DNA of 64,000 nucleotides from Escherichia coli (GTDB lineage: Bacteria; Pseudomonadota; Gammaproteobacteria; Enterobacterales; Enterobacteriaceae), in NCBI RefSeq assembly GCF_001677475.2, contig NZ_CP015229.1; one strand, written 5' to 3'. The translations under genes and the position numbers were made by a program. A model generated the notes under the pieces. That model had not been told where the DNA came from, did no database searches, and saw only the letters and a list, made by a program, of their open reading frames with translations. Positions 1 through 47,894 of this stretch are shown here, one piece after another. Numbering within the stretch: position 1 is the stretch's first letter; every line of letters starts with the position of its first letter.

Positions 1-1267
1 AAATTAACGTTGCGATACCAAGGTTGAAGAGTGCAACCAGCAATGCGGCGACGCTACCGTTGGTGTTAAAGAAGGCTCCCAGACCGGTTGGCATGGTCCA
101 CGGTGCAATATTGGTCACCGGAGGAATAATACCCATGTAGTACGCTGCCAGGGTGATTGCCGCCAGAATCGGTTGTACCAGTACAAACGGGATAAACATC
201 ACCGGGTTCATGATAATTGGCAGACCAAACAGAATCGGTTCGTTAATCTGGAAGATGCCGGACGGCAGCGCCAGTTTTGCCACCTGACGATAATCAGCAC
301 GGCGAGAGGCGATAAAGATAGCCAGGATCAGACCTAAAGTCGCACCACTGCCCCCAAGGAAAATAAAGGAGTCCAGCATCGGCTTGGCCCAGATATGGAA
401 GGTCTTACCGGCTGCCAGAGCCGCTTCGACGGAACCATATTGCTGATAGGTCGCGATATTTTCCAGCGCCCACGGCGTCATAATGCCGTTGTCCAGTGCG
501 GTCAGCGCCAGCGCGCCATGAATACCGAAGAACCAGAGCAGTGGAACAAAGATCACATAGGCCCAGCCCACCACGCTACCCAACGATGCCAGTGGGGTTG
601 AGATGGTATCCATAATGATCTGATGGAAGTTGGTGCCCCAGGTATTCAACGCCCAGGCAATAATCCCCATCACGGAAAGAATAATAAAGCCGGGAATTAA
701 AGCCGAGAAGGAACGCGATACTGAAGCAGGTACGCTATCGGGCAATTTAATGACCCAATTGCGGCGGACAATAAAGGTAAACATTTCTGCCACCACCAGG
801 CCAATAATAATCCCGGAGATGATATTCGCCCCACCTAACCAGTTTGCGCCAACCGCATAGGCCTCCCCGACACTATATGGGGTGACGGTCATAAATGCTG
901 CAACGGATAACAACCCAGCCGCCAGCGCATCGACTTTACGCTCTTCTGCCAGCGCCATGCCAATAAAGAACGGTGCCATTAAAGACATTATCCCTAATGT
1001 TCCGTTATATACGTTGCCGCCAATACCTTTCAGACCATTAAGTGTTTCAATGGTTGAGGCGTCGAGGCGAATACCTAAGGAATAAAAAAACGACCCCTCC
1101 CCAAAGCTTAGAAAAACGTTGTTAATTAATACAAACATGGCCCCCGCAAGGGTTAACGGCATTAAGCGAATAAAGCCATTTTTGATTGCATTAACGTGTG
1201 GCTGCTTTCCTATTTTAACTGCAAAAGGGAGGAGTACCTTTTCAAGCGATGCAATAACATTACTCAT
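1..1267 (-). CDS. chbC: PTS N,N'-diacetylchitobiose-specific EIIC component; start codon at 1265-1267, 3-prime end runs off the window start
   Basis: Minus-strand reading frame open to the window edge; reverse complement of 1251-1267 gives ATGAGTAATGTTATTGC (MSNVIA...), recognised as K-12 ChbC; sits directly downstream of chbB as in the chb operon. Confidence 0.85.
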
Positions 1268-1351
1268 AGAAAAATACCCTTAAAAACCGCAATTTAAATA
1301 TTGCGGTATTGATTTATGAAATAACTCTTTGACGGGAAAATTTAAAAAAAA
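1268..1351 (-). promoter_or_regulatory. chbB-chbC intergenic region; in K-12 this spacer carries the decoy target that pairs with ChiX sRNA
   Basis: Position between chbB stop and chbC start; function taken from established knowledge, base-pairing not verified here. Confidence 0.4.
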
Positions 1352-1672
1352 TTAATTTGCTGCGGCTTTTTTAATCGCTGCAACCGCAGCCTTAAGCACG
1401 CCTAAACCATCGACTTTGCCATAAAGCAGCGAGTCAATTACTTCGACCGGTTTGTTGGGTAACAAACGCTGGATTTCGGGCAACATATAAGCAATCTGTG
1501 GCCCTAATAACACGACATCGGCATTCTGACCTTTTTCACCAGCCAGTGTTTCCGGAAATGCTTCAATAATGACCGGAACTTCATATTTTTCTGCCTGTGC
1601 GCGCATTTTTGATACCAGTAAAGAGGTAGACATGCCCGCAGAACAAAACAGATAAATGTGTTTCTTTTCCAT
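1352..1672 (-). CDS. chbB: PTS N,N'-diacetylchitobiose-specific EIIB component
   Basis: ORF track 106 aa [23 protein letters not shown]...; recognised as ChbB. Confidence 0.95.
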
Positions 1673-1910
1673 AAAACTGCCCTCATCGACGATTATCTGT
1701 CAGCCAGACACTCCGCAAGCCTTAACCTGCTTCCATGCTCTGGGTAACTTGCGAAACCAACATGACTTTTTTTGTGGCTGAAAGGAGTATACGGTATAGA
1801 CCTGAGCAATAGTATTTCTTTGACCTTATAAATTGTCTCTCCTTGACCTGCGGTTATGACCCTCTTCACATTTCGGGCAAATAATTCGCGAAGATAATTA
1901 AGAACTCAGG
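1673..1910 (-). promoter_or_regulatory. chb operon promoter/operator region (NagC, ChbR and CRP regulated in K-12)
   Basis: About 240 bp AT-rich non-coding region upstream of chbB; site positions not resolved. Confidence 0.4.
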
Positions 1911-1911
1911 C

Positions 1912-1940
1912 CAAAAAAAACCGGCGCAATGGCCGGTTTC
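1912..1940 (-). terminator. intrinsic terminator downstream of osmE
   Basis: On the minus strand a GC hairpin (aaccggcc/ggccggtt) is followed by a run of 8 T. Confidence 0.7.
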
Positions 1941-1970
1941 CGTTGTAACTCAAGCTTTCAGGCGAAGTGA

Positions 1971-2309
1971 TTACTTCGCAGCCTGTGGATCAGTGTCGTA
2001 TTCAGCACAGGTCTGATAACCGGAGTTGATGACATGTCCGGTATCATCTAACGCGACAAAGTAGGTTTCTGCTTTACCATCACGTTGACCCAGGATGTAG
2101 GTCTGGCAAGTACCACGAGCATGGATCATGCTCACTTCAGACGAAGGTTTACCCGCAATTTGTGCAACCTGCGCCCGGCTCATGCCTTTTTTGACGTCTT
2201 TCACCACAGGCTGTACAAACTGGTCTTTGGTACGATCATAAGCCGTACAACCCGCCAGCATGGTTAATACCGCCGCTGCACTCAGAATTCCTGCCATATT
2301 CTTGTTCAT
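1971..2309 (-). CDS. osmE: osmotically inducible lipoprotein OsmE
   Basis: ORF track 112 aa [21 protein letters not shown]... with lipobox; recognised as OsmE. Confidence 0.95.
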
Positions 2310-2510
2310 ATTCCGTCCTCTTGTTTATCAGCGTGTTAGATAAGCCTGGAATACATTGGGCGCTTTTTCAAGCCCGTGAACGAAACGGCTCCGCTTTCAG
2401 AGGATTCCTGTATGACGTTTTAACCACCATTCAGCCCGCTGTCGCTTGTCGTTTCAGTAGCAACGGGTTAGCTTTAAGGAAGTTTTGTCTTTTCTGTCTG
2501 GAGGGGTTCA

Positions 2511-3338
2511 ATGACATTGCAACAACAAATAATAAAGGCGCTGGGCGCAAAACCGCAGATTAATGCTGAAGAGGAAATTCGTCGTAGTGTCGATTTTCTG
2601 AAAAGCTACCTGCAAACTTATCCGTTCATTAAATCACTGGTGCTCGGGATCAGCGGCGGTCAGGACTCCACGCTTGCCGGAAAGCTGTGCCAGATGGCGA
2701 TTAATGAGCTGCGCCAGGAAACTGGCAACGAATCGCTGCAATTTATTGCCGTACGCCTGCCCTATGGTGTTCAGGCCGACGAACAAGATTGCCAGGATGC
2801 CATTGCCTTTATTCAACCGGATCGCGTATTAACCGTTAATATCAAGGGCGCGGTATTGGCCAGCGAACAGGCGCTGCGCGAAGCGGGTATTGAATTAAGT
2901 GATTTTGTCCGTGGCAATGAAAAAGCGCGTGAGCGGATGAAAGCACAATATAGCATTGCGGGTATGACCAGCGGTGTCGTGGTGGGCACCGATCATGCAG
3001 CAGAAGCCATTACCGGATTCTTCACTAAATATGGTGACGGCGGTACGGACATTAATCCACTGTATCGTCTCAACAAACGTCAGGGTAAACAGTTACTGGC
3101 AGCATTAGGTTGCCCGGAACACCTTTATAAGAAAGCCCCAACTGCCGATCTGGAAGATGATCGCCCTTCTCTGCCAGATGAAGTGGCACTCGGCGTGACC
3201 TATGACAATATCGACGACTATCTGGAAGGGAAAAACCTACCTGAACAGGTCGCCAGAACAATAGAGAACTGGTATCTGAAAACCGAACATAAACGCCGTC
3301 CGCCAATTACCGTTTTCGATGATTTCTGGAAAAAGTAA
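2511..3338 (+). CDS. nadE: NH3-dependent NAD+ synthetase
   Basis: ORF track 275 aa [26 protein letters not shown]...; SGGQDS ATP-PPase motif; recognised as NadE. Confidence 0.95.
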
Positions 3339-3377
3339 TAATTTGCACATATTGGTTTGTGCGAAAAAGAGTACTTT

Positions 3378-3415
3378 GTTCACGCCGGATGCGGCGTGAA
3401 CGCCTTATTCGCCCC
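3378..3415. repeat. REP-like palindromic element downstream of nadE
   Basis: gttcacgccggatgcggcgtgaacgcc, imperfect palindrome matching the REP consensus family. Confidence 0.55.
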
Positions 3416-3567
3416 ACAAAACTATGCAAATTCAATATATTGCATGAGTCGAATAGGCCTGACAGGCGTAGCACGTCAGACGGTGTAACCTTTGTCATCA
3501 ACCCGCCTCTTTTTTAATCGCTCCCCGCCTGTTACACTGGATAGATAACCAGCATTCGGAGTCAACA

Positions 3568-5068
<1,501 letters not shown>

Positions 5069-5103
5069 TTAGTGGCGATCAGGCTTTTTTTGCATCTGTT
5101 TGA

Positions 5104-5170
5104 GAACAAAAAAGAAAACCGCCGATCCTGTCCACCGCATTACTGCAAGGTAGTGGACAAGACCGGCGGT
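5104..5170 (-). terminator. intrinsic terminator downstream of spy
   Basis: Stem ccgccg.../...cggcgg with nested tgtccac/gtggaca, followed on the minus strand by a TTTTCTTTTTT tract. Confidence 0.6.
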
Positions 5171-5192
5171 CTTAAGTTTTTTGGCTGAAAGA

Positions 5193-5678
5193 TTATTCAG
5201 CAGTTGCAGGCATTTTACCTTTTGCCGCTGGACGTTCTGTCAGACGCTTCTCAAAATTAGCATTAAATTGCTTTTTCTGTTCCGGCGTCAGGATGTTGTA
5301 AATCTTGTTCTGGGTTTCCATGTGCGCCAGCATGTTAGCTTTGCGCTGTTCTTCCATTTTTGCGATCTGCGCTTCAGCTTTTGCTTTATCGAAGGTATCG
5401 CTGGCAATGATGTCATGCATTGCGCGGCGTTCTTCCAGCGGCGGACGTTTCATCTGGTCACGCTGGCCTTTCATGATTTCGCGGATCTGCTGTTTCTGCG
5501 CGTCGGTCAGGTTCAGGTCTTTGAACATCATGTCCTGATGCGGACCGAACTTGCCTTTGTGGTGCATCATCGGCTTCGCGTCAGCCGGTGCTGCGGTAGT
5601 GGTGTCTGCAGCATGGGCCAGGTTAGCCGCGCCAAGAGCCAGGGTAGAGGCAACAAACAGTGCAGTTAATTTACGCAT
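5193..5678 (-). CDS. spy: periplasmic ATP-independent chaperone Spy
   Basis: ORF track 161 aa MRKLTALFVASTLALGAANLAHA...; recognised as Spy. Confidence 0.95.
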   Translation of the reverse strand: MRKLTALFVASTLALGAANLAHAADTTTAAPADAKPMMHHKGKFGPHQDMMFKDLNLTDAQKQQIREIMKGQRDQMKRPPLEERRAMHDIIASDTFDKAKAEAQIAKMEEQRKANMLAHMETQNKIYNILTPEQKKQFNANFEKRLTERPAAKGKMPATAE

Positions 5679-5830
5679 ATTCTATATCCTTCCTTTCAGT
5701 TATTTATTACGGCTTTCTTAAGTAGCGTGCCGTGTTGACGAGATTAACTTTACTGACTTTAGCGTCAATTAATCAGAGCAACGGTAAAACAATGAAAGTG
5801 TAAAAAACACTTTTGCGCCAATTATGGAGA
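5679..5830 (-). promoter_or_regulatory. spy promoter region (CpxR/BaeR-controlled in K-12)
   Basis: Upstream non-coding region with GTAAA repeats at 5784-5788 and 5800-5804; spacing does not fit the canonical CpxR box, so individual sites are not called. Confidence 0.35.
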
Positions 5831-6007
5831 AAAAAAGAAAATTTGATGGAGAGTGATGAGAGAATATTACAACACGATGATTTTGCAGAGATTATGAAGA
5901 ACTATACCGGATGACTGGTGATAAATAAAGCAAATAACCAGGATTAATCTGTATTAATTTATAAGAAAGCAACTTAATACCCGCAGAATGATTTCTGCGG
6001 GTAAGTA

Positions 6008-12071
<6,064 letters not shown>

Positions 12072-12107
12072 TTAATAATAAGTAATGTTTGCGCTGTAAA
12101 TGTAGAT

Positions 12108-12123
12108 TGCAGGGTTCGTGCCA
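12108..12123 (-). promoter_or_regulatory. candidate sigma54 (-24/-12) promoter element for astCADBE
   Basis: Minus strand reads TGGCAC-gaacc-CTGCA, one mismatch to TGGCAC-N5-TTGCA, about 75 bp upstream of the astC ATG; ARG-box-like TGCAT/TGAAT half-sites nearby at about 12187-12217. Confidence 0.5.
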
Positions 12124-12480
12124 GCCAGTGATAAAAGTGCATAAACGGCGGAGGCTAACTGGAAATCAAGGAGTTATAACCAAACCATATGCATTTAAAG
12201 TGCATATAAAGTGAATACGTTTGCGATGTGGGTGAATAAAAAGAATAAAAAACGCAATGTTATGCAGAAGTAAAATATAATTCTGGAATTGTGATCATTG
12301 ACGAAATTTACTGGAAATTACTGCGCCATTCTGACGCAGCGCGCACCAAAAGCGGGCATTTTTTGCGCCATCGTTGACATCATTAACAACCATCGATCAA
12401 ATCACTTAACAACAGGCGGTAAGCAAAGCGAAATTCTGCTACCATCCACGCACTCTTTATCTGAATAAATGGCAGCGACT

Positions 12481-13287
12481 ATGAAATTTGTCTCTTTTAA
12501 TATCAACGGCCTGCGCGCCAGACCTCACCAGCTTGAAGCCATCGTCGAAAAGCACCAACCGGATGTGATTGGCCTGCAGGAGACAAAAGTTCATGACGAT
12601 ATGTTTCCGCTCGAAGAGGTGGCGAAGCTCGGCTACAACGTGTTTTATCACGGGCAGAAAGGCCATTATGGCGTGGCGCTGCTGACCAAAGAGACGCCGA
12701 TTGCCGTGCGTCGCGGCTTTCCCGGTGACGACGAAGAGGCGCAGCGGCGGATTATTATGGCGGAAATCCCCTCACCGCTGGGTAATGTCACCGTGATCAA
12801 CGGTTACTTCCCGCAGGGTGAAAGCCGCGACCATCCGATAAAATTCCCGGCAAAGGCGCAGTTTTATCAGAATCTGCAAAACTACCTGGAAACCGAACTC
12901 AAGCGTGAAAATCCGGTGCTGATTATGGGCGATATGAATATCAGTCCTGGCGACCTGGATATTGGCATTGGCGAAGAGAACCGTAAGCGCTGGCTGCGTA
13001 CCGGAAAATGCTCTTTCCTTCCGGAGGAACGCGAATGGATGGAGAGACTGATGAGCTGGGGGTTGGTCGATACCTTCCGCCATGCGAATCCGCAAACAGC
13101 AGATCGTTTCTCATGGTTTGATTACCGCTCAAAAGGTTTTGACGATAACCGTGGTCTGCGCATCGACCTGCTTCTCGCCAGCCAACCGCTGGCAGAATGT
13201 TGCGTAGAAACCGGCATCGACTATGAAATTCGCAGCATGGAAAAACCGTCCGATCACGCCCCCGTCTGGGCGACCTTCCGCCGCTAA
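12481..13287 (+). CDS. xthA: exodeoxyribonuclease III
   Basis: ORF track 272 aa trimmed to ATG at 12481 ([14 protein letters not shown]...). Confidence 0.9.
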
Positions 13288-13453
13288 TTTAGCAGCTCTC
13301 CTGGCTCAAACTGGGTCAGGAGAATTAACCTTGAGAAAAATCAACAAACTGTCAGTAATGATTTGTTGCCTGCCGTCCTTTGTTATACCGTCACTGCGTT
13401 TTTAGTTGTCTGACCACTTCTCTATTATCAAGTTTGATATAGGAAACTCCACG

Positions 13454-14164
13454 ATGAACGCTGAGCGTAAATTTCTGTTTGCCTGTCTTATTTTTGCGCT
13501 GGTCATTTACGCTATCCACGCTTTCGGTTTATTCGATCTGCTCACCGATTTACCCCACTTACAGACACTCATCCGCCAGAGCGGATTGTTCGGTTATAGC
13601 CTCTATATTCTGTTATTCATCATTGCCACCCTCTTTCTGTTACCAGGAAGCATACTGGTGATCGCTGGAGGAATAGTTTTTGGCCCGCTCTTAGGGACAC
13701 TACTCTCATTAATTGCCGCCACGCTCGCCTCCTCGTGCTCATTCCTGCTGGCGCGCTGGCTGGGACGTGATTTACTGCTGAAATACGTGGGCCATAGCCA
13801 TACCTTTCAGGCCATTGAAAAAGGCATTGCGCGTAACGGTATTGATTTTCTTATTCTGACCCGCTTAATCCCGTTGTTTCCTTACAATATTCAAAATTAC
13901 GCTTACGGATTAACCACAATCGCCTTCTGGCCTTATACCCTTATTTCGGCACTCACGACCCTACCCGGTATTGTTATTTATACCGTGATGGCAAGCGATC
14001 TCGCCAATGAAGGCATTACGCTGCGCTTTATTTTACAACTCTGTCTGGCGGGCCTGGCGCTGTTTATTCTCGTCCAGCTCGCAAAACTCTACGCCCGACA
14101 CAAACATGTGGATCTGTCTGCTTCGCGCCGCAGCCCACTTACTCACCCAAAAAATGAAGGATAG
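13454..14164 (+). CDS. ydjX: DedA/TVP38-family inner membrane protein
   Basis: ORF track 252 aa trimmed to ATG at 13454 with upstream aggaaa RBS; multi-pass hydrophobic. Confidence 0.8.
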   Translation: MNAERKFLFACLIFALVIYAIHAFGLFDLLTDLPHLQTLIRQSGLFGYSLYILLFIIATLFLLPGSILVIAGGIVFGPLLGTLLSLIAATLASSCSFLLARWLGRDLLLKYVGHSHTFQAIEKGIARNGIDFLILTRLIPLFPYNIQNYAYGLTTIAFWPYTLISALTTLPGIVIYTVMASDLANEGITLRFILQLCLAGLALFILVQLAKLYARHKHVDLSASRRSPLTHPKNEG

Positions 14165-14168
14165 AACG

Positions 14169-14846
14169 ATGTTGCAACATTATTCAGTGTCATGGAAAAA
14201 AGGACTGGCTGCACTCTGCTTACTGGCTGTTGCTGGGCTTAGCGGCTGCGATCAAAAAGAGAATGCGGCGGCAAAAGTGGAATACGACGGACTTTCGAAC
14301 AGCCAACCGCTGCGTGTCGATGCCAATAACCATACGGTAACCATGCTGGTGCAAATTAATGGTCGTTTCCTCACCGACGACACTCGTCACGGTATTGTGT
14401 TTAAAGATGGCTCCAACGGACATAAATCGCTGTTTATGGGTTATGCGACCCCGAAAGCATTTTATGAAGCCCTGAAAGAGGCAGGTGGTACACCGGGCGA
14501 AAACATGACGATGGATAATAAAGAAACGACTCATGTCACAGGCAGCAAACTGGATATTTCGGTCAACTGGCAAGGGGCGGCAAAAGCGTATTCCTTCGAT
14601 GAAGTGATTGTTGACAGTAATGGCAAGAAACTGGACATGCGCTTTGGCGGTAATTTAACGGCAGCAGAAGAGAAGAAAACGGGCTGCCTGGTGTGTCTGG
14701 ATAGCTGCCCGGTCGGCATCGTCAGCAATGCAACATACACTTATGGTGCGGTTGAAAAACGAGGTGAAGTTAAATTCAAAGGCAATGCCTCGGTTCTCCC
14801 GGCGGATAACACGCTGGCAACGGTTACCTTTAAAATCACCGAATAA
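14169..14846 (+). CDS. ydjY: putative lipoprotein with Cys-rich C-terminus (CLVCLDSCP)
   Basis: Internal ATG at 14169 (MLQHYSVSWKKGLAALCLLAVAGLSGC..., lipobox) within ORF 14007-14846. Confidence 0.8.
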   Translation: MLQHYSVSWKKGLAALCLLAVAGLSGCDQKENAAAKVEYDGLSNSQPLRVDANNHTVTMLVQINGRFLTDDTRHGIVFKDGSNGHKSLFMGYATPKAFYEALKEAGGTPGENMTMDNKETTHVTGSKLDISVNWQGAAKAYSFDEVIVDSNGKKLDMRFGGNLTAAEEKKTGCLVCLDSCPVGIVSNATYTYGAVEKRGEVKFKGNASVLPADNTLATVTFKITE

Positions 14847-14860
14847 AGCCAGGATAAAGG

Positions 14861-15568
14861 ATGATGAATATGCAATCGCGTAAAATCTGGTACTACCGTA
14901 TAACCCTCATCATCCTGTTGTTCGCTATGCTGCTGGCATGGGCGCTGCTTCCCGGCGTCCATGAGTTTATCAATCGCAGCGTTGCGGCGTTTGCCGCCGT
15001 GGACCAACAGGGTATAGAACGCTTTATTCAGTCTTACGGCGCACTAGCGGCAGTTGTCTCGTTCTTGTTGATGATTTTACAGGCCATTGCTGCACCGCTA
15101 CCTGCGTTTTTGATCACCTTTGCCAATGCGTCGCTGTTTGGCGCGTTCTGGGGCGGCTTGCTGTCGTGGACCAGTTCGATGGCCGGCGCGGCGCTGTGCT
15201 TTTTTATCGCCAGAGTGATGGGCCGCGAAGTGGTGGAAAAATTAACCGGCAAAACCGTACTTGACAGTATGGACGGCTTTTTCACTCGCTACGGCAAACA
15301 CACCATCCTGGTCTGTCGGTTATTGCCTTTTGTCCCTTTCGATCCAATCAGCTATGCTGCCGGTCTGACTTCAATACGTTTTCGCTCGTTTTTTATCGCC
15401 ACCGGGCTTGGTCAATTACCGGCGACTATTGTTTATTCCTGGGCGGGCAGCATGTTAACAGGCGGTACTTTCTGGTTTGTCACCGGACTGTTTATTCTGT
15501 TTGCCCTGACCGTGGTGATTTTTATGGCGAAGAAAATATGGCTTGAGCGCCAGAAGAGGAATGCCTGA
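14861..15568 (+). CDS. ydjZ: DedA/TVP38-family inner membrane protein
   Basis: ORF track 235 aa; hydrophobic. Confidence 0.8.
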   Translation: MMNMQSRKIWYYRITLIILLFAMLLAWALLPGVHEFINRSVAAFAAVDQQGIERFIQSYGALAAVVSFLLMILQAIAAPLPAFLITFANASLFGAFWGGLLSWTSSMAGAALCFFIARVMGREVVEKLTGKTVLDSMDGFFTRYGKHTILVCRLLPFVPFDPISYAAGLTSIRFRSFFIATGLGQLPATIVYSWAGSMLTGGTFWFVTGLFILFALTVVIFMAKKIWLERQKRNA

Positions 15569-16116
15569 TGGGTTTACCGCCGCTTAGCAAAATTCCTTTC
15601 ATTTTACGTCCGCAGGCGTGGCTGCATCGTCGCCATTACGGCGAGGTGCTAAGCCCGATTCGCTGGTGGGGGCGAATTCCGTTTATCTTTTATCTGGTGT
15701 CGATGTTTGTCGGCTGGCTGGAGCGCAAACGCTCACCGCTCGATCCGGTAGTGCGATCGCTTGTCAGCGCGCGCATTGCGCAAATGTGCCTGTGTGAGTT
15801 TTGCGTGGATATCACCAGTATGAAAGTCGCCGAGCGCACTGGCAGCACCGATAAACTGCTGGCAGTGGCTGACTGGCGGCAAAGCCCGCTCTTTAGCGAT
15901 GAAGAACGGCTGGCGCTGGAGTACGCCGAAGCCGCAAGCGTAACGCCGCCAACGGTCGATGATGCCCTGCGTACCCGACTGGCTGCGCATTTTGACGCCC
16001 AGGCGCTCACCGAACTGACGGCATTGATCGGCCTGCAAAACCTGTCAGCCCGTTTTAATTCTGCCATGGACATTCCCGCTCAGGGGCTGTGCCGTATTCC
16101 TGAAAAACGTTCTTAA
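15568..16116 (+). CDS. ynjA: carboxymuconolactone decarboxylase / AhpD-like protein
   Basis: ORF track 182 aa; ATG overlaps ydjZ stop by 1 bp (TGATG). Confidence 0.8.
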   Translation: MGLPPLSKIPFILRPQAWLHRRHYGEVLSPIRWWGRIPFIFYLVSMFVGWLERKRSPLDPVVRSLVSARIAQMCLCEFCVDITSMKVAERTGSTDKLLAVADWRQSPLFSDEERLALEYAEAASVTPPTVDDALRTRLAAHFDAQALTELTALIGLQNLSARFNSAMDIPAQGLCRIPEKRS

Positions 16117-16122
16117 GGAGAG

Positions 16123-17292
16123 ATGATGCGCCATTGTGGGTGGTTGCTGGGATTGTTATCGCTGATTTCTTTGGCAACACATGCCAGTGACTGGCAGGAA
16201 ATCAAAAACGACGCCAAAGGGCAAACCGTCTGGTTTAACGCCTGGGGCGGCGATACGGCAATTAACCGCTATCTCGACTGGGTTAGCGGCGAGATGAAAA
16301 CCCATTACGATATAAACCTGAAGATTGTTCATCTCGCGGATGCCGCAGACGCGGTGAAGCGCATTCAGACCGAAGCTGCTGCCGGACGCAAAACAGGCGG
16401 TTCGGTGGATCTGCTCTGGGTGAACGGCGAAAACTTCCGCACCTTAAAAGAGGCCAATTTATTACAAACGGGCTGGGTGGAGACTCTGCCCAACTGGCGC
16501 TATGTCGACACTCAGCTGCCGGTGCGGGAAGATTTTTCAGTGCCTACAGAAGGGGCTGAATCGCCCTGGGGGGGCGCACAACTGACATTTATCGCCCGCC
16601 GCGATGTTACGCCACAGCCACCACAAACACCGCAAGCCTTACTGGAGTTTGCTAAAGTCAATCCCGGCACGGTTACCTATCCGCGCCCACCGGACTTTAC
16701 CGGCACGGCGTTTCTTGAACAGTTGCTGATTATGTTGACACCAGATCCCGCCGCATTAAAAGAAGCTCCGGACGATGCGACTTTCGCCCGTGTCACTGCG
16801 CCCTTGTGGCAATTTCTTGATGCGCTGCATCCGTATTTATGGCGCGAAGGAAAGGATTTCCCGCCTTCGCCCGCGCGGATGGATGCTCTGCTGAAAGCCG
16901 GCACATTGCGCCTGTCGCTGACCTTTAATCCTGCTCATGCGCAGCAAAAAATCGCCAGCGGCGATTTACCCGTCAGCAGTTACAGCTTTGGCTTTCGCGA
17001 GGGAATGATTGGCAACGTGCATTTCGTCACCATTCCCGCCAACGCGAATGCCAGTGCTGCGGCGAAGGTAGTTGCCAATTTCCTGCTCTCACCCGATGCA
17101 CAACTGCGTAAAGCAGACCCTGCTGTCTGGGGCGATCCTTCGGTTCTCGATCCGCAAAAACTGCCTGACGGGCAGCGCGAAATATTGCAATCAAGAATGC
17201 CGCAGGATCTGCCGCCGGTACTGGCTGAACCGCACGCAGGTTGGGTAAATGCGCTGGAACAAGAATGGCTACACCGTTACGGTACGCATTAA
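16123..17292 (+). CDS. ynjB: ABC transporter periplasmic substrate-binding protein (thiamine-binding-protein-like)
   Basis: ORF track 389 aa with signal peptide MMRHCGWLLGLLSLISLATHA. Confidence 0.8.
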   Translation: MMRHCGWLLGLLSLISLATHASDWQEIKNDAKGQTVWFNAWGGDTAINRYLDWVSGEMKTHYDINLKIVHLADAADAVKRIQTEAAAGRKTGGSVDLLWVNGENFRTLKEANLLQTGWVETLPNWRYVDTQLPVREDFSVPTEGAESPWGGAQLTFIARRDVTPQPPQTPQALLEFAKVNPGTVTYPRPPDFTGTAFLEQLLIMLTPDPAALKEAPDDATFARVTAPLWQFLDALHPYLWREGKDFPPSPARMDALLKAGTLRLSLTFNPAHAQQKIASGDLPVSSYSFGFREGMIGNVHFVTIPANANASAAAKVVANFLLSPDAQLRKADPAVWGDPSVLDPQKLPDGQREILQSRMPQDLPPVLAEPHAGWVNALEQEWLHRYGTH

Positions 17293-27014: not shown

Positions 27015-28058
27015 TTAACGGATCTCAACCATGGCACGACCGCCGCGCGCTGGCACCAGTTCGCCAATCGCCGTCAGTTCAATGCCAAACTCGGCGGCTG
27101 TAGCTTTGACCTCATTTTCTGCTTCCGGCATGACCGCCAGCAGCAAACCGCCAGAAGTTTGCGGATCGCACAGCAGATCGCGCACTTCACGCGGCATTTC
27201 ACCCATCAGATGACCGTAGCTGGCAAAGTTACGTTCGGTGCCGCCAGGCACTGCGCCCAACTTAATGTACTCTTCAACCCCCGGCAATTTCGGGATCGCA
27301 TCATAGTCAACGCGCGCCTGCACACCAGCACCCTGACACATTTCGCTCAAATGCCCCAGCAGACCAAAGCCCGTAACGTCGGTCATCGCTTTTACGCCTT
27401 CGATGTTGGCAAAGGACGCGCCTGCGATGTTCATCCGGCACATCACTTCCGTCGCCAGTCCTTGATGTTCTGGTTTCAGCAGTGATTTTTTCTCAGCCGT
27501 GGTAAGAACGCCAATCCCCAGCGGTTTCGTCAGGAACAGTTTACATCCGGCTTGTGCGGTACTGTTTTTCTTCACCCGCTCGGTCGGTACGATCCCCGTC
27601 ACCGCCAGACCAAAAATCGGCTCCGGCGCATCGATGGAGTGACCGCCAGCCAGCGCAATACCCGCCTGACGGCATGCATAGCGTCCACCTTCGGTTACTT
27701 CGCGGGCAATTTCCGGGGAAAGTTTGTTAATCGGCCAGCCGAGGATCGCAATCGCCATAATCGGTTTGCCTCCCATTGCGAAGATATCGCTGATGGCGTT
27801 AGTCGCCGCAATGCGGCCAAAATCGAAAGGATTATCAACGATCGGCATAAAGAAGTCGGTGGTACTGATAACGCTGGTGCCATTGCCCAGATCGTATACC
27901 GCCGCATCGTCGCGGGTTTCATTACCCACAAGCAAATTCGGATCAACAAACTTCGCCTGCTCACTGTGCAGGATGGTTTCCAACACTTTTGGGGAAATTT
28001 TACAGCCGCAACCAGCTCCGTGGCTGTATTGGGTCAAACGAATCGTATTCTCGCTCAT
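27015..28058 (-). CDS. selD: selenide, water dikinase (selenophosphate synthetase)
   Basis: ORF track 349 aa trimmed to [23 protein letters not shown]... Confidence 0.9.
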
Positions 28059-28174
28059 GGACATCTCCTGTCAATGCAATCCGGGTATGGTAACCCTCAT
28101 TCCGTGAAGTGATAAGTGAGAGTGTCTGAATTCCTGCGCCTTTGCTCACAATCCAGACAGTTTCGCGACAATTA

Positions 28175-28726
28175 TCAGAAATAAGTGACAAACGGCGTCG
28201 GGTCCGGGACGTTTATCGACGTCGATGCCTTCAGTTGTGGCGTGCCGAGGTAGAGAAAACCGACAATTTTATCCTGCTCACGGCAACCGAATGCTTCACG
28301 CACTACTGGGCTTTCAGTTAATGCGCCACTGCGCCAGATGCCGCCAAAACCCTGGGCAACGGCTGCCATTTGCATCGCCATGACCGCGCATCCCGCAGAC
28401 ATTTCCTGTTCCCATCGCGGGACTTTATGATTTTCTTCGCATTTCGCCACCACCGTGATGATGAGCGGTGCGCGGAACGGCGCATTACGGGCTTTGTCGA
28501 TTGCTTTGTTATCACTACCGGCAGCAATCGCCCCCTGTTCCAGTACGGCGCTGAAACGCTCGCGCCCTTCCCCTTCAATCACAAAAAAATGCCACGGTTG
28601 CATGGACTTATGGTCCGGCGCACGCATACCCGCACGCAGGATGTTTTGCAGTTGTTCACCCGTTGGCGCGGGTTCAGCCAGGCGGGAGGCGCTACGGCGA
28701 TTGATCAATAGTTCGAGTGCATCCAT
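28175..28726 (-). CDS. ydjA: nitroreductase-family protein
   Basis: ORF track 189 aa trimmed to [16 protein letters not shown]... Confidence 0.85.
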
Positions 28727-28886
28727 TTGATTAACTCCTGTCATGATATTTATTCACAAAATTAACACGAGAGTGGATTTTGTTACAGCACAGTCCGCAA
28801 TTCCTGCTGACAAGTGCCGGTTGGGTCATTACGATAAACACATCTATTGCGCCTGTGACAGGTGTGACCTTAAGTTGGGAGAATAC

Positions 28887-30743
28887 ATGCGAACCCTTTG
28901 GCGATTTATTGCCGGATTTTTTAAATGGACGTGGCGTCTGCTGAATTTCGTCCGTGAAATGGTACTTAACCTGTTCTTTATTTTTCTCGTGCTGGTTGGT
29001 GTGGGGATCTGGATGCAAGTCAGTGGTGGTGATTCGAAAGAAACGGCCAGTCGTGGCGCACTGCTGCTGGACATTTCTGGTGTGATCGTCGATAACCCCG
29101 ACAGTTCTCAGCGGTTTAGTAAATTAAGCCGCCAACTACTTGGTGCCAGTTCCGATCGTCTGCAGGAAAACTCACTGTTTGATATCGTCAACACCATTCG
29201 CCAGGCGAAGGACGACCGGAATATCACCGGTATCGTGATGGATCTGAAAAACTTCGCAGGCGGCGACCAGCCGTCTATGCAGTACATCGGCAAAGCCCTG
29301 AAAGAGTTTCGTGACAGCGGGAAACCGGTTTATGCCGTTGGCGAGAACTACAGCCAGGGGCAATATTATCTCGCCAGTTTCGCCAATAAAATTTGGCTGT
29401 CTCCGCAAGGCGTGGTTGATCTGCACGGTTTTGCCACCAACGGTCTGTACTACAAATCGTTACTGGATAAGCTGAAAGTTTCCACCCATGTGTTCCGCGT
29501 GGGTACGTATAAATCTGCCGTTGAACCGTTTATTCGTGATGATATGTCGCCTGCAGCCCGCGAAGCTGACAGCCGCTGGATTGGTGAGCTGTGGCAAAAC
29601 TATCTGAATACTGTTGCCGCTAACCGGCAGATCCCTGCTCAGCAGGTATTCCCTGGCGCGCAAGGGTTGCTTGAGGGTTTAACCAAAACCGGTGGCGATA
29701 CCGCGAAATATGCGTTGGAAAACAAGCTGGTCGATGCACTGGCATCGAGTGCCGAAATCGAAAAAGCTCTGACTAAAGAGTTCGGCTGGAGTAAGACTGA
29801 TAAAAATTATCGCGCCATCAGTTATTACGATTACACATTGAAAACGCCGGCAGATACCGGTGACAGCATCGGTGTCGTCTTCGCTAATGGCGCAATTATG
29901 GATGGCGAGGAAACTCAGGGGAATGTTGGCGGTGATACCACTGCGGCACAAATCCGCGACGCTCGCCTTGACCCGAAAGTGAAAGCGATTGTCCTGCGTG
30001 TTAATAGCCCAGGCGGCAGCGTTACCGCGTCTGAAGTGATTCGCGCTGAACTGGCAGCAGCCCGGGCAGCGGGTAAGCCTGTGGTTGTATCGATGGGCGG
30101 CATGGCGGCATCTGGTGGTTACTGGATTTCCACGCCAGCTAATTACATTGTGGCTAACCCCAGCACTTTGACCGGTTCTATCGGTATCTTCGGCGTGATC
30201 ACCACCGTAGAAAATAGTCTGGATTCGATTGGTGTTCATACTGATGGTGTCTCAACTTCACCGCTGGCGGATGTTTCTATCACCAAGGCACTGCCGCCGG
30301 AAGCGCAGCAGATGATGCAGTTAAGCATTGAGAATGGCTATAAACGCTTTATCACGCTGGTTGCTGATGCGCGTCATTCGACGCCGGAGCAGATTGATAA
30401 AATCGCCCAGGGCCACGTCTGGACCGGTCAGGATGCAAAAGCTAACGGGCTGGTCGATAGTCTCGGGGATTTCGATGATGCGGTCGCCAAAGCAGCAGAG
30501 CTGGCAAAAGTGAAACAGTGGCATCTGGAATACTACGTTGATGAACCGACCTTCTTCGACAAAGTGATGGACAACATGTCTGGTTCTGTCCGGGCAATGT
30601 TGCCAGATGCGTTCCAGGCCATGTTACCTGCACCGCTGGCCTCGGTAGCCTCTACTGTTAAAAGTGAAAGCGACAAGCTGGCCGCGTTTAACGACCCACA
30701 AAACCGTTATGCGTTTTGCCTGACCTGCGCCAACGTGCGTTAA
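28887..30743 (+). CDS. sppA: signal peptide peptidase A (protease IV)
   Basis: Internal ATG at 28887 ([14 protein letters not shown]...) within ORF 28743-30743. Confidence 0.9.
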
Positions 30744-30755
30744 GTCTTGTACTGA

Positions 30756-30790
30756 GTGGCCGACAGATCGTCGGCCACATTACTTTTTAC
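30756..30790 (+). terminator. intrinsic terminator downstream of sppA
   Basis: 9-bp stem gtggccgac/gtcggccac followed by attacttttt. Confidence 0.7.
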
Positions 30791-43080: not shown

Positions 43081-44571
43081 ATGAAATTGCACCATAGAAT
43101 GCTCCGGCATTTTATCGCCGCAAGTGTCATTGTGCTGACATCTTCCTTCCTTATTTTTGAACTTGTCGCCAGCGACAGAGCAATGAGTGCTTATCTGCGC
43201 TATATCGTGCAGAGAGCAGACTCCTCCTTTCTTTATGATAAGTATCAGAATCAGAGTATTGCCGCGCATGTGATGCGCGCTCTCGCTGCTGAGCAGTCGG
43301 AAGTGTCGCCAGAACAGCGGCGCGCCATCTGCGAGGCTTTTGAGTCTGCCAATAATACCCATGGCTTAAACCTGACTGCCCATAAATACCCGGGCTTACG
43401 CGGCACACTACAAACCGCATCCACTGACTGCGACACAATTGTGGAAGCTGCAGCACTATTACCCGCTTTTGATCAGGCAGTGGAAGGCAACCGCCACCAG
43501 GATGATTACGGTTCAGGTCTTGGGATGGCCGAAGAGAAATTTCACTATTATCTCGATCTCAATGACCGCTATGTCTATTTTTATGAGCCGGTTAATGTTG
43601 AATACTTTGCGATGAATAACTGGTCCTTCCTGCAGTCAGGAAGTATTGGCATCGATCGCAAAGATATTGAAAAGGTATTTACCGGGCGTACCGTATTATC
43701 GAGCATTTACCAGGATCAGCGTACTAAACAGAACGTGATGAGTTTGCTGACGCCGGTATATGTCGCAGGGCAGCTAAAAGGGATTGTGCTGCTGGATATT
43801 AACAAAAACAATTTGCGGAATATCTTTTACACTCATGACCGCCCTCTCCTCTGGCGTTTTCTCAATGTCACGCTAACTGATACCGATTCGGGGCGCGACA
43901 TTATCATCAACCAGAGCGAAGATAATCTGTTCCAGTATGTCAGTTACGTCCATGACTTACCGGGCGGCATTCGTGTCTCGTTATCCATTGATATTCTTTA
44001 CTTTATCACGTCTTCGTGGAAAAGCGTTCTGTTCTGGATTTTGACGGCGTTAATTTTGCTGAATATGGTCCGGATGCACTTCCGTTTATACCAAAATGTG
44101 TCGCGAGAAAATATTAGTGATGCGATGACTGGACTGTATAATCGCAAAATTTTAACCCCTGAACTGGAACAGCGGTTGCAGAAACTGGTGCAATCCGGTT
44201 CTTCGGTGATGTTTATTGCTATTGACATGGACAAGTTAAAGCAAATAAATGACACCCTCGGTCATCAGGAGGGGGATTTAGCGATTACGTTATTAGCTCA
44301 GGCGATTAAACAGTCGATTCGTAAAAGTGATTATGCCATCCGACTCGGTGGCGATGAATTCTGCATCATCCTTGTCGATTCGACGCCGCAAATTGCAGCA
44401 CAACTGCCTGAACGTATCGAAAAACGTCTGCAACATATCGCGCCGCAGAAAGAGATCGGCTTCTCTTCCGGTATTTACGCGATGAAAGAAAACGATACGT
44501 TACATGATGCGTATAAAGCTTCCGATGAGCGTTTATATGTCAATAAGCAGAACAAAAACAGCCGTTCATGA
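43081..44571 (+). CDS. dgcK: diguanylate cyclase with N-terminal sensor domain (GGDEF)
   Basis: Internal ATG at 43081 (MKLHHRMLRHF...) within ORF 42901-44571; RLGGDEF motif; K-12 yeaJ. Confidence 0.8.
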   Translation: MKLHHRMLRHFIAASVIVLTSSFLIFELVASDRAMSAYLRYIVQRADSSFLYDKYQNQSIAAHVMRALAAEQSEVSPEQRRAICEAFESANNTHGLNLTAHKYPGLRGTLQTASTDCDTIVEAAALLPAFDQAVEGNRHQDDYGSGLGMAEEKFHYYLDLNDRYVYFYEPVNVEYFAMNNWSFLQSGSIGIDRKDIEKVFTGRTVLSSIYQDQRTKQNVMSLLTPVYVAGQLKGIVLLDINKNNLRNIFYTHDRPLLWRFLNVTLTDTDSGRDIIINQSEDNLFQYVSYVHDLPGGIRVSLSIDILYFITSSWKSVLFWILTALILLNMVRMHFRLYQNVSRENISDAMTGLYNRKILTPELEQRLQKLVQSGSSVMFIAIDMDKLKQINDTLGHQEGDLAITLLAQAIKQSIRKSDYAIRLGGDEFCIILVDSTPQIAAQLPERIEKRLQHIAPQKEIGFSSGIYAMKENDTLHDAYKASDERLYVNKQNKNSRS

Positions 44572-44613
44572 TAACCTTCTGTGATTGTTTGCTTGTAATC
44601 TCAGGAGCATGAA

Positions 44614-45117
44614 ATGACTGAAATGGCTAAAGGAAGCGTGACGCATCAGCGGTTAATCGCTTTATTATCACAAGAAGGTGCTGACTTCCGCGTCGTTACC
44701 CATGAAGCGGTAGGTAAATGTGAAGCGGTGTCAGAAATTCGTGGCACCGCTCTAGGCCAGGGTGCTAAGGCACTGGTATGTAAAGTCAAAGGCAATGGCG
44801 TAAATCAACATGTTCTGGCGATCCTCGCTGCCGATCAACAGGCCGATCTGAGCCAACTCGCCAGCCATATAGGCGGATTACGCGCTTCGTTGGCCAGCCC
44901 GGCGGAAGTCGATGAACTCACAGGCTGTGTCTTCGGCGCGATCCCCCCTTTCAGCTTCCATCCAAAACTCAAACTGGTTGCCGACCCCCTACTCTTCGAA
45001 CGATTTGATGAAATCGCCTTCAATGCAGGCATGCTGGATAAATCCGTTATTTTGAAAACCGCGGATTATTTGCGTATTGCGCAACCAGAACTGGTCAATT
45101 TCCGCCGCACTGCGTAA
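44614..45117 (+). CDS. yeaK: YbaK/ProX-family mischarged aminoacyl-tRNA deacylase
   Basis: ORF track 167 aa. Confidence 0.85.
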   Translation: MTEMAKGSVTHQRLIALLSQEGADFRVVTHEAVGKCEAVSEIRGTALGQGAKALVCKVKGNGVNQHVLAILAADQQADLSQLASHIGGLRASLASPAEVDELTGCVFGAIPPFSFHPKLKLVADPLLFERFDEIAFNAGMLDKSVILKTADYLRIAQPELVNFRRTA

Positions 45118-45222
45118 CTAGCCTGTCCGTTCAATAAGCAGAACGGACAAAACCAGCACAACAGCAATGGCAAAAAACGATGACGTGATAATCAGTGTCT
45201 CGACGAACATTTGATCGTTCAT
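45118..45222 (-). CDS. yoaI: small membrane protein, 34 aa
   Basis: Reverse complement reads ATGAACGATCAAATGTTCGTCGAG... ([34 protein letters not shown]); recognised as K-12 small protein YoaI; not listed in the ORF track because it is under 60 aa. Confidence 0.6.
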
Positions 45223-45391
45223 AGCATGCCCCCGGGAGATAGCTGTTTTCACGTTATTGTTAGCGTGCACAAATGGCAGTTTGATGACAGTTCGCCTGAT
45301 TTTTTATGCAAAAAACGTAAAGATTTTCTACTTCCTTCCTGCAGCAAGCGTAAAGTAAGCAGGCTTATTATTTTTTGGCAAGGAAACCACG

Positions 45392-45838
45392 ATGTTTGAT
45401 GTCACTTTGCTGATCCTGCTCGGGTTAGCTGCGCTGGGCTTTATCAGTCATAACACCACTGTCGCCGTTTCAATTCTGGTGTTGATAATTGTCCGCGTCA
45501 CACCGTTAAGCACCTTTTTCCCGTGGATTGAAAAACAGGGGCTAAGTATCGGGATAATCATTCTGACGATTGGCGTTATGGCCCCCATCGCCAGCGGGAC
45601 GCTACCGCCCTCAACCCTGATTCACTCGTTTCTGAACTGGAAATCACTGGTGGCAATTGCAGTAGGCGTTATTGTCTCCTGGCTGGGTGGACGCGGCGTG
45701 ACGTTAATGGGCAGCCAGCCGCAACTGGTTGCTGGGCTGCTGGTGGGCACTGTTTTAGGCGTAGCGCTGTTTCGCGGCGTACCGGTTGGCCCGCTTATTG
45801 CCGCGGGTCTGGTTTCGCTGATTGTGGGGAAACAGTAG
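45392..45838 (+). CDS. yeaL: UPF0756 family inner membrane protein
   Basis: ORF track 148 aa, hydrophobic. Confidence 0.8.
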
Positions 45839-46616
45839 TTAATCCCGCAATATATCGGCCTGGCGTTTGCCCCAGGCCTTTCTTAAACATAGTAATAAAG
45901 GCCGTTGTTGAATCATACCCCAGCGTATGAGCAACTTTCTGTACAGTATCGCCTTTCACTAATCCCTGAAGCGCCATAATCAGCTGTAACTGCTGACGCC
46001 ACTGGCGAAAACTCAACCCCGTCTCTTTTACTATCAGTCGGGCAAGATTGCGTTCACTCATCGCAAAAAAGCCAGCCCATTGCCCCAATGACCCCCACTC
46101 GACGGGCCCTTTCGCCATCATCTCCACCATCGTGCGGATTTTAGGATGAGAAGAAACGGGCAGGTGCAGCTGTTGTTGTGGCTGCTGAGGGAGTTCATCA
46201 AACAGGACCTGAATTAATCTGCGGGTCATCGGCTCAGCACGCTGAGTCGTCGTCCTGTTTGCCAGGGTTAAAATTAATTCCCGGCATAAGGGCGATATTT
46301 TCAATGTGCAACATGTTGTCGGCATTGTCACTGCGCTGGGTTCGATAAACAGAAAACAGAGTTCAGCGTTAGATGTCACTTGATTGCTATGTTCCACCCC
46401 GCCCGGTATCCAAACCGCATATTGCGGCGGCACCATCCACAAAGCATTTTCCACCGTACAGGTAATTGCACCATGTAGCGCCAGTATCAGCTGTCCTTTG
46501 CGGTGCTGATGTACAGGACTGGTTAACTCATCCGTTCCGGCGTGAATACAAAATGCGACCGCGGCTTCATGGTGTCGGTCGGGTTCATAGCCATTGAGAT
46601 TCAACCTGTGCATCAT
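45795..46616 (-). CDS. nimR: AraC-family transcriptional regulator (NimR)
   Basis: ORF track 273 aa; C-terminal AraC helix-turn-helix; overlaps yeaL 3-prime end; K-12 yeaM. Confidence 0.8.
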
Positions 46617-46712
46617 TTTGTCCGAACTTAGCGATAAGTTGTCATTTTAGCTTGATTCAACATAACAATAAAAACGGTAAGGTACAGCCTCGTTTGTAAC
46701 AATGAGAAGCAT

Positions 46713-47894
46713 ATGACCTGTTCAACTTCATTAAGCGGCAAAAACAGGATTGTCCTTATCGCTGGCATTCTGATGATTGCCACTACATTACGCGTCACCT
46801 TCACCGGCGCAGCACCGTTACTGGATACGATTCGTTCCGCTTACTCGCTGACGACTGCGCAAATCGGCTTATTGACCACCCTGCCATTATTGGCCTTTGC
46901 GCTAATCTCACCTTTGGCCGCCCCGGTGGCGCGACGTTTTGGTATGGAACGTAGCCTGTTTGCCGCGTTACTTTTGATCTGTGCAGGTATCGCAATTCGT
47001 TCTCTCCCTTCGCCTTACTTATTATTTGGCGGTACAGCGGTCATTGGCGGTGGGATTGCATTAGGCAATGTCTTACTGCCAGGATTAATTAAACGCGATT
47101 TCCCTCATTCCGTCGCCAGACTTACCGGCGCATATTCCCTGACAATGGGAGCTGCAGCGGCACTGGGATCGGCTATGGTCGTGCCGCTGGCTTTGAACGG
47201 TTTTGGCTGGCAAGGCTCGTTGCTCATGCTGATGTGTTTTCCTCTGCTGGCTCTTTTTTTATGGTTGCCACAGTGGCGAAGCCAACAACATGTAAATTTG
47301 AGTACTTCACGCGCCTTACATACTCGGGGTATCTGGCGTTCGCCGCTTGCCTGGCAGGTCACATTGTTTCTTGGGATCAACTCACTGATCTATTACGTGA
47401 TTATTGGCTGGCTTCCGGCGATCCTCATCAGTCACGGCTATAGCGAAGCACAGGCGGGTTCATTGCATGGTTTGCTGCAACTAGCCACAGCAGCTCCCGG
47501 TTTGCTGATCCCACTTTTCTTACATCATGTGAAAGATCAGCGTGGTATTGCAGCGTTCGTTGCCTTGATGTGCGCAGTGGGCGCGGTTGGGTTCTGCTTT
47601 ATGCCAGCGCACGCGATCACCTGGACTCTGCTTTTCGGTTTTGGTTCCGGCGCAACGATGATACTGGGGTTGACGTTCATTGGTCTTCGGGCAAGTTCTG
47701 CGCATCAGGCGGCGGCACTCTCGGGGATGGCACAATCCGTCGGGTATTTGCTGGCAGCCTGTGGGCCGCCGCTAATGGGTAAAATACACGATGCTAACGG
47801 TAACTGGTCTGTACCACTGATGGGTGTTGCCATACTTTCACTACTGATGGCGATTTTCGGACTTTGCGCCGGGAGAGACAAAGAAATTCGCTAG
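46713..47894 (+). CDS. nimT: MFS transporter (NimT)
   Basis: ORF track 393 aa, 12-TM-like; divergent from nimR; K-12 yeaN. Confidence 0.8.
   Translation: MTCSTSLSGKNRIVLIAGILMIATTLRVTFTGAAPLLDTIRSAYSLTTAQIGLLTTLPLLAFALISPLAAPVARRFGMERSLFAALLLICAGIAIRSLPSPYLLFGGTAVIGGGIALGNVLLPGLIKRDFPHSVARLTGAYSLTMGAAAALGSAMVVPLALNGFGWQGSLLMLMCFPLLALFLWLPQWRSQQHVNLSTSRALHTRGIWRSPLAWQVTLFLGINSLIYYVIIGWLPAILISHGYSEAQAGSLHGLLQLATAAPGLLIPLFLHHVKDQRGIAAFVALMCAVGAVGFCFMPAHAITWTLLFGFGSGATMILGLTFIGLRASSAHQAAALSGMAQSVGYLLAACGPPLMGKIHDANGNWSVPLMGVAILSLLMAIFGLCAGRDKEIR

Follow-up and report, generated by a model that had tools for sequence, protein, structure and literature searches.

The convergent genes yeaL and nimR (yeaM) share the last 44 bp of their coding sequences, and we interpret this, with a probability of roughly 80%, as an ordinary overlap between the tails of two real genes, brought about by drift of the nimR stop codon in a dispensable NimR tail, with no dedicated function for the shared bases. 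The pair lies in a 64,000-nucleotide stretch of DNA, here called the window, to which all coordinates refer unless stated otherwise. An incidental origin is the preferred reading because the length of the overlap varies among species, because a switch from 17 to 44 nt tracks residue 145 of YeaL, because the sequence added by that switch is unconstrained, and because an open run of this length is to be expected. It is further supported by the absence of nimR and nimT from several Escherichia, and by the position of the shared stretch, which falls outside the Pfam domains of NimR and inside the DUF441 match of YeaL. In sum, the comparative sequence data favour an incidental origin of the overlap.

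The ORF listing places yeaL on the plus strand at 45392–45838 (148 aa, with the stop codon TAG at 45836–45838) and nimR on the minus strand at 45795–46616 (273 aa, stop codon TAA), and the RefSeq gene models are identical. The overlap at 45795–45838 thus encodes, on one strand, YeaL residues 135–148 and the yeaL stop and, on the other, part of NimR residue 260, residues 261–273 and the nimR stop. The latter reads TTA on the plus strand (45795–45797), where TT closes the yeaL codon for Leu135 (CTT) and A opens that for Ile136 (ATT). Within the overlap, codon position 1 of one gene lies opposite position 1 of the other, and position 2 lies opposite position 3. The 44-bp convergent overlap claimed in the earlier note is therefore borne out by the ORF coordinates, the sequence and the RefSeq models. 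The same models, with the same 44-bp overlap, are found in RefSeq for O157:H7 TR01, K-12 MG1655, strain E12 and strain 53; in K-12 MG1655 the genes are b1789 (1874352–1874798) and b1790 (1874755–1875576). The locus was found in 5,406 of 5,426 complete E. coli genomes, and in 4,858 of 5,408 (~90%) a 56-nt probe spanning the junction matches with 99% identity or better. The overlap is real, ordinary and fixed in E. coli. It is also already known: the K-12 reference genome is annotated with it, and the pair figures in a published list of overlapping transcription units.

Several observations concern individual genomes. E. coli 23CRST051 (NZ_AP045826.1, 313–2313) carries an IS1B inserted within the overlap, at about position 45804 of the window, and its genes are annotated as a yeaL of 167 aa and a nimR of 280 aa, both with new C-terminal ends, so that this strain represents a natural uncoupling of the pair. 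When the window is compared with O157:H7 TR01, the upstream part (window 1–32729) is not collinear, window 11122–30779 corresponding to positions 1–19662 of the TR01 locus; an IS3 insertion and a truncated form of ydjE are present in TR01 and absent from the window, and the identity is only 97.5–98.6%. Over the yeaL/nimR locus as a whole, the 99% level is attained by only 87 of the 5,411 complete E. coli genomes that match, and the source strain is thus not close to most sequenced lineages.

To place the junction in a wider context, we searched for YeaL in one genome per GTDB species and located the nimR stop by walking from a conserved motif to the first stop codon. Orthologues of YeaL and NimR were recovered from 57–80 enterobacterial species, and the 57 loci with a convergent nimR were classified by the length of the junction. 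The commonest class, with 26 loci, overlaps by 17 nt and includes Klebsiella, Enterobacter, Raoultella, Kluyvera, Leclercia, Lelliottia and the divergent ‘E. coli’ E69. The 44-nt overlap of the window recurs in 13 further loci, mostly of Citrobacter. Overlaps of 20–21 nt (four loci, Salmonella diarizonae among them), 6 nt (two loci) and 45 nt (one locus) are rarer; eight loci abut or leave a small gap of up to 5 nt (S. arizonae, Buttiauxella, Cedecea and one Citrobacter), and three have large gaps of 122 to 181 nt. Some overlap, of 6–45 nt, is thus present in 46 of the 57 species and absent from 11, and the junction is tight (an overlap, or a gap of no more than 5 nt) in 54. With junctions that extend from a gap of 181 nt to an overlap of 45 nt, these species show no conservation of overlap length. 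The comparison indicates that the tight convergent arrangement is old and that the length of the overlap is labile.

A further 21 loci have no intact nimR beside yeaL. Both nimR and nimT are missing from this position in E. albertii, E. whittamii, Escherichia sp. E1V33 and ‘E. coli’ SCPM-O-B-8794, where yeaO comes next after yeaL, about 85 nt on. Escherichia sp. MOD1-EC7003 (2432–2616) retains a scar of nimR in which the codons for residues 250–273 are fused to those for residues 2–42, nimT being gone, and the breakpoint of this scar coincides with the loop of the terminator-like hairpin described below.

A comparison of the 17-nt and 44-nt classes helps to explain how the overlap acquired its present length. 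For a stop codon to appear in the nimR frame inside yeaL, two successive yeaL codons must read xTT|Axx or xTC|Axx. In species with the 17-nt overlap, this is achieved at yeaL codons 144–145, which encode Phe, Leu or Ile followed by Ile, for example as TTT ATC or ATT ATT, and which place TAA or TGA on the opposite strand. In the window the same two codons are ATT GTG (Ile-Val), as a result of which positions 45822–45824 read TTG, and the reverse complement, CAA, encodes Gln265 of NimR at the point where nimR of the other species stops (TTA or TCA on the yeaL strand). The next usable stop site is offered by the yeaL codons CTT ATT of Leu135-Ile136 (45794–45799). The correspondence between the yeaL terminus and the overlap is close: all loci in which YeaL ends in LIIGKQ have the 17-nt overlap, and in loci in which it ends in LIVGKQ the 17-nt stop is absent and nearly all end at 44 nt. 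The shared sequence can accordingly be divided into an older 17-nt core (45822–45838), common to Klebsiella, Enterobacter, Raoultella, Kluyvera, Leclercia and others, and a 27-nt extension (45795–45821), found in E. coli and most Citrobacter, that encodes NimR residues 265–273 (QSAKPDPRQ).

Once past the folded DNA-binding domain (which ends at about residue 260), the reading frame of NimR enters yeaL and continues until the yeaL codons supply a first stop. Replacement of yeaL Ile145 by Val (ATT to GTG) in the E. coli/Citrobacter lineage converted the ancestral nimR TAA into CAA (Gln265), and NimR now runs nine codons further, to the next stop at Leu135-Ile136, giving the 44-nt overlap. Judged from the aligned codons, a single A-to-G change is at once an Ile-to-Val replacement in YeaL and a stop-to-Gln replacement in NimR. 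YeaL sets the shared sequence, and the tail of NimR follows passively. The step from 17 to 44 nt, with the loss of a stop (TAA to CAA) and extension to the next one, is just such an event as the general model of overlap origin by stop loss or shift describes, for instance for same-strand genes (PMC3887535). It differs from the general stop-loss model in that the mutation removing the stop is also the Ile145Val replacement in the opposite gene (PMC3887535).

The overlap falls very differently in the two proteins. YeaL is a 148-aa inner-membrane protein of the DUF441 (UPF0756) family, matched over the full Pfam DUF441 profile (1–139 of 139) by residues 7–145 with an E value of 2.7e-44; the sRNA UhpU has been reported to target and repress the yeaL mRNA (PMC12704781). 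The residues encoded by the overlap, 135–148, lie within the DUF441 match and are almost invariant over 80 enterobacterial loci, in nearly all of which YeaL also ends at the same residue. NimR, the repressor of nimT, is a 273-aa single-target regulator of the AraC family that controls resistance to 2-nitroimidazole, and its sole SELEX target is the spacer between yeaM and yeaN (nimR/nimT) (PMC5934670); RefSeq names the MG1655 product ‘DNA-binding transcriptional repressor NimR’. Its Pfam matches (HTH_18 at residues 180–255, E value 1.5e-18; HTH_AraC at 224–256; AraC_binding at 22–148; Cupin_2 at 30–91) give the layout of the AraC/XylS family, a C-terminal double helix-turn-helix and an N-terminal cupin-type ligand domain. 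These domains end at residue 255 or 256, ahead of residues 260–273 in the overlap, and in an alignment of 39 orthologues no column after P252 is invariant and none after Y255 is nearly so. An AlphaFold2 model built on this alignment (mean pLDDT 85.6) is rich in β-structure in its N-terminal half and helical in its C-terminal half; the last helix spans residues 252–260, and residues 262–273 have a pLDDT below 50. The overlap is therefore asymmetric, combining conserved DUF441 sequence in YeaL with a tail of NimR that lies past the DNA-binding domain.

Because no spacer separates the two genes, the yeaL and nimR mRNAs must be complementary at their 3′ ends. A terminator-like element for yeaL is located on the plus strand at 45857–45884, where a 7-bp G+C-rich hairpin (45857–45878; GGCCTGG-N8-CCAGGCC, −12.7 kcal/mol) begins 19 nt past the yeaL stop and is followed by TTTCTT. 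It is the only such site on either strand between 45000 and 47000, and it lies wholly within nimR codons 245–254. Transcripts of yeaL probably stop at this predicted hairpin and U-tract, inside nimR. Most loci of Escherichia, Citrobacter and Salmonella retain both the hairpin and the T-run, whereas in Klebsiella and Enterobacter these are degraded. Pair counting over the stem found 80% of cells paired and one pair with compensatory changes. We did not accept this covariation as good evidence of selection for RNA structure, since the conserved Gly-Leu-Gly and Pro-Gly-Arg codons dictate three of the seven pairs, Lys-Lys codons on the opposite strand account for the T-run, and NimR has a Gly-to-Ala change at the covarying pair. 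A bidirectional intrinsic terminator was likewise rejected: TTTCTT stands on the plus strand only, the minus-strand side reading GATATATTGCGG, and the hairpin at 45857–45878 cannot serve nimR in any case, being upstream of the nimR stop.

The 45000–47000 scan found no hairpin site that could act as a minus-strand terminator for nimR, and beyond the nimR stop the minus strand folds with a stability no greater than that of shuffled sequences (z = −0.39). The first ~160 nt after the nimR stop have a C/G ratio of 1.4–1.9 in 78-nt windows, and this C-rich stretch, antisense to yeaL (45637–45794, minus strand), is a candidate Rho loading region. Its base composition is compatible with Rho-dependent termination, and nimR transcripts probably end by Rho action at this predicted site. 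The sequence implies that the two transcripts overlap by 44 nt or more; if both predicted ends hold, at least ~90 nt of sense and antisense RNA would be complementary, and some mutual dampening of the two genes would be possible as a side effect.

Two other plus-strand hairpins lie at the junction, one at 45781–45813 (−15.6 kcal/mol), whose loop holds the nimR stop, and one at 45821–45851 (−10.9 kcal/mol), which spans the yeaL stop; neither is followed by a T-run. The 121-nt region that contains them has a more stable fold than 198 of its 200 shuffled versions (z = −2.4), and the two may be by-products of coding, as they lie largely within conserved codons. An Rfam scan of 44500–47500 (E ≤ 1) returned a single sub-threshold hit, to JUMPstart, at 45598–45627 on the minus strand, antisense within yeaL (21.5 bits against a gathering threshold of 35, E 0.16), which we rejected as chance. 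The 3′-end mapping supplements of TERMITe and of Adams et al. 2021 have no entry for yeaL, nimR or yeaM.

The alternative that survives best is a functional excludon, in which the 3′ overlap would be kept since transcription of one gene lowers the other, by polymerase collision or because RNase III cuts the RNA duplex; strong expression of yeaL would then mean less NimR and derepression of the nimT exporter, or the reverse. The pair does appear in the core list of ExcludonFinder (Table 1), among the 165 convergent excludons that recur in 50% or more of 58 RNA-seq data sets from MG1655 (PMC12288877). It shares with the other listed excludons the arrangement of opposite-strand neighbours with overlapping transcripts, and the list rests on RNA-seq coverage only (PMC12288877); what defines a working excludon is that the two genes exclude each other's expression. 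Such a call is almost automatic for genes whose coding sequences overlap: the listing records overlapping transcription, which is almost unavoidable at a junction of this kind, and says nothing about regulation. Selection for coupled 3′ ends could explain why 54 of 57 species keep the nearly spacer-free arrangement, but the overlap varies in length, three species have gaps of 122–181 nt, and several Escherichia lineages have lost nimRT and kept yeaL. Similarly, the predicted yeaL terminator inside nimR, from which the ~90 nt or more of complementary RNA are expected, speaks for coupling, but outside Escherichia, Citrobacter and Salmonella the hairpin is not conserved, and its sequence is mostly dictated by the NimR amino-acid motif encoded there.

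A precedent for regulation by such an arrangement exists in mscL-arfA of E. coli and other Enterobacterales (PMC10070815). That pair is likewise convergent with overlapping 3′ ends, its junction distance also varies between species, from overlapping coding sequences to short gaps, and the 3′ region of one transcript is, as in yeaL-nimR, complementary to the 3′ coding region of the other (PMC10070815). Unlike yeaL-nimR, however, mscL-arfA has a measured antisense effect on mRNA level, and arfA carries a stem-loop that is cleaved by RNase III (PMC10070815). On balance, we regard a functional excludon at yeaL/nimR as unlikely. A more specific proposal makes the junction a regulatory device: the hairpin would be held in the codons of the nimR DNA-binding domain by selection on synonymous sites, and a ~90-nt duplex or a collision of polymerases would let yeaL lower NimR and so raise NimT. 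We hold this to be quite doubtful. If true, it would link YeaL, an uncharacterised membrane protein, to nitroimidazole efflux, and the frozen GGG and AAG codons at the end of yeaL would be a footprint of dual use.

In length, the overlap does not exceed what is expected by chance. Among the window's 47 ORFs of 200 aa or more, antisense stops in the frame relation of yeaL and nimR occur at 0.047 per codon, corresponding to a mean open run of 21 codons, or ~64 nt. Against this expectation, the run of 13.7 codons that nimR makes in yeaL is typical and 44 nt is unremarkable. The same frame relation offers a measure of dual-coding constraint, as the wobble base of each yeaL codon is the middle base of a nimR codon and selection on the NimR tail would consequently freeze the synonymous sites of yeaL. 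Within the 27-nt extension, the entropy of yeaL third positions in the 44-nt class is 0.74, compared with a gene mean of 0.81 (rank 39 of 140 windows), which points to no added constraint on this part of the overlap.

The older 17-nt core behaves somewhat differently. Third-position entropy over its yeaL codons, the last four of the gene, is 0.33 in the 44-nt class and 0.59 in the 17-nt class (rank 5 of 145 windows), and it is 0.97 in species that have no nimR (rank 50 of 145). At Gly146 (45827–45829), 38 of the 40 loci that bear nimR use the rare codon GGG, as do only 3 of the 19 without it (counts that ignore shared ancestry); the nimR-less loci mostly use GGC or GGT. GGG at this position retains Ser263 of NimR (TCC), where GGC would give Cys; the exceptions, GGT and GGA, give Tyr and Phe. 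The GGG codon may therefore be a small footprint of dual coding, with phylogeny uncorrected, and the core as a whole carries a weak signal that is suggestive of dual coding at four or five sites, again uncorrected for shared ancestry. The first residues of the NimR tail, T261–S263, are probably not free.

These data bear directly on the possibility that the nine-residue extension QSAKPDPRQ is itself functional, as a stability or interaction tail of NimR, with the overlap as its price. The extension is fixed in E. coli, where about 90% of 5,408 genomes have an identical junction, and it occurs in 13 of the 19 Citrobacter-type loci classified. Its sequence, however, differs freely among Citrobacter species (QSTRPDLPQ, QSATPDRPQ, RSAKPVPPQ and others), following synonymous changes in yeaL, and the yeaL wobble entropy across it is that of the average of the gene. 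The extension is also missing from some Citrobacter and from one divergent genome labelled E. coli (L005), and it is modelled at a pLDDT below 50. A function of its own for this tail is, in our estimation, very improbable.

A further alternative is a non-contiguous operon, in which nimR transcripts would run through yeaL in antisense into yoaI (minus strand, 45118–45222), so that nimR and yoaI would be co-transcribed around yeaL. The two genes are on the same strand, and no intrinsic terminator is predicted on that strand between them. ExcludonFinder, however, gives only three non-contiguous operons in MG1655, and nimR-yoaI is not among them (PMC12288877). The untranslated C-rich RNA past the nimR stop would, moreover, favour termination by Rho. 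Also counting against the operon, yoaI is described as separately regulated, and we attach very little credence to this reading. As a separate observation, yoaI abuts yeaK (plus strand, ending at 45117) with zero spacer bases, and this pair of a gene and a small-protein gene is in the published ExcludonFinder list too (PMC12288877).

That the overlap is an artefact of annotation, one of the ORFs being no gene or ending elsewhere, was rejected and deserves practically no weight, as the stop codons are unambiguous, each protein matches its family strongly, and conserved orthologues of both occur in dozens of genera. For the same reason, the corrected gene boundaries by which the earlier note thought the overlap might disappear cannot apply here: a tail-to-tail overlap is set by its two stop codons, which no re-annotation of start codons can move, and both ORFs are conserved genes.

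The yeaL/nimR junction was also said to be the third instance of this architecture in the window, and a scan for convergent ORF overlaps combined with protein identification agrees, yielding three cases. The first is cho/ves (pair region 3568–5053), in which cho (3568–4455, plus strand) and ves (minus strand, stop at 4415) overlap by 41 bp, as established by the ORF scan and by protein identification. The second, nudG/ynjH, has an overlap of 35 bp between nudG (21543–21950, plus strand) and ynjH (21916–22188, minus strand) and is also annotated in RefSeq. Both resemble yeaL/nimR in length and have the same frame relation, all three overlaps being 2 modulo 3, and the genes involved are unrelated to yeaL and nimR. 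Coding sequences overlap at three of the 12 convergent junctions of the 64-kb window.

The importance of the yeaL/nimR overlap is little beyond bookkeeping, but it does have consequences for work on either gene. Deleting or tagging the 3′ end of yeaL or of nimR alters the other gene. Phenotypes of yeaL or nimR knock-outs need to be checked for polar or cis effects, because each gene shares its last 14 codons with the other and the likely, predicted terminator of yeaL lies inside nimR. The yeaL/nimR pair also offers a clean worked example of how convergent overlaps arise and grow.
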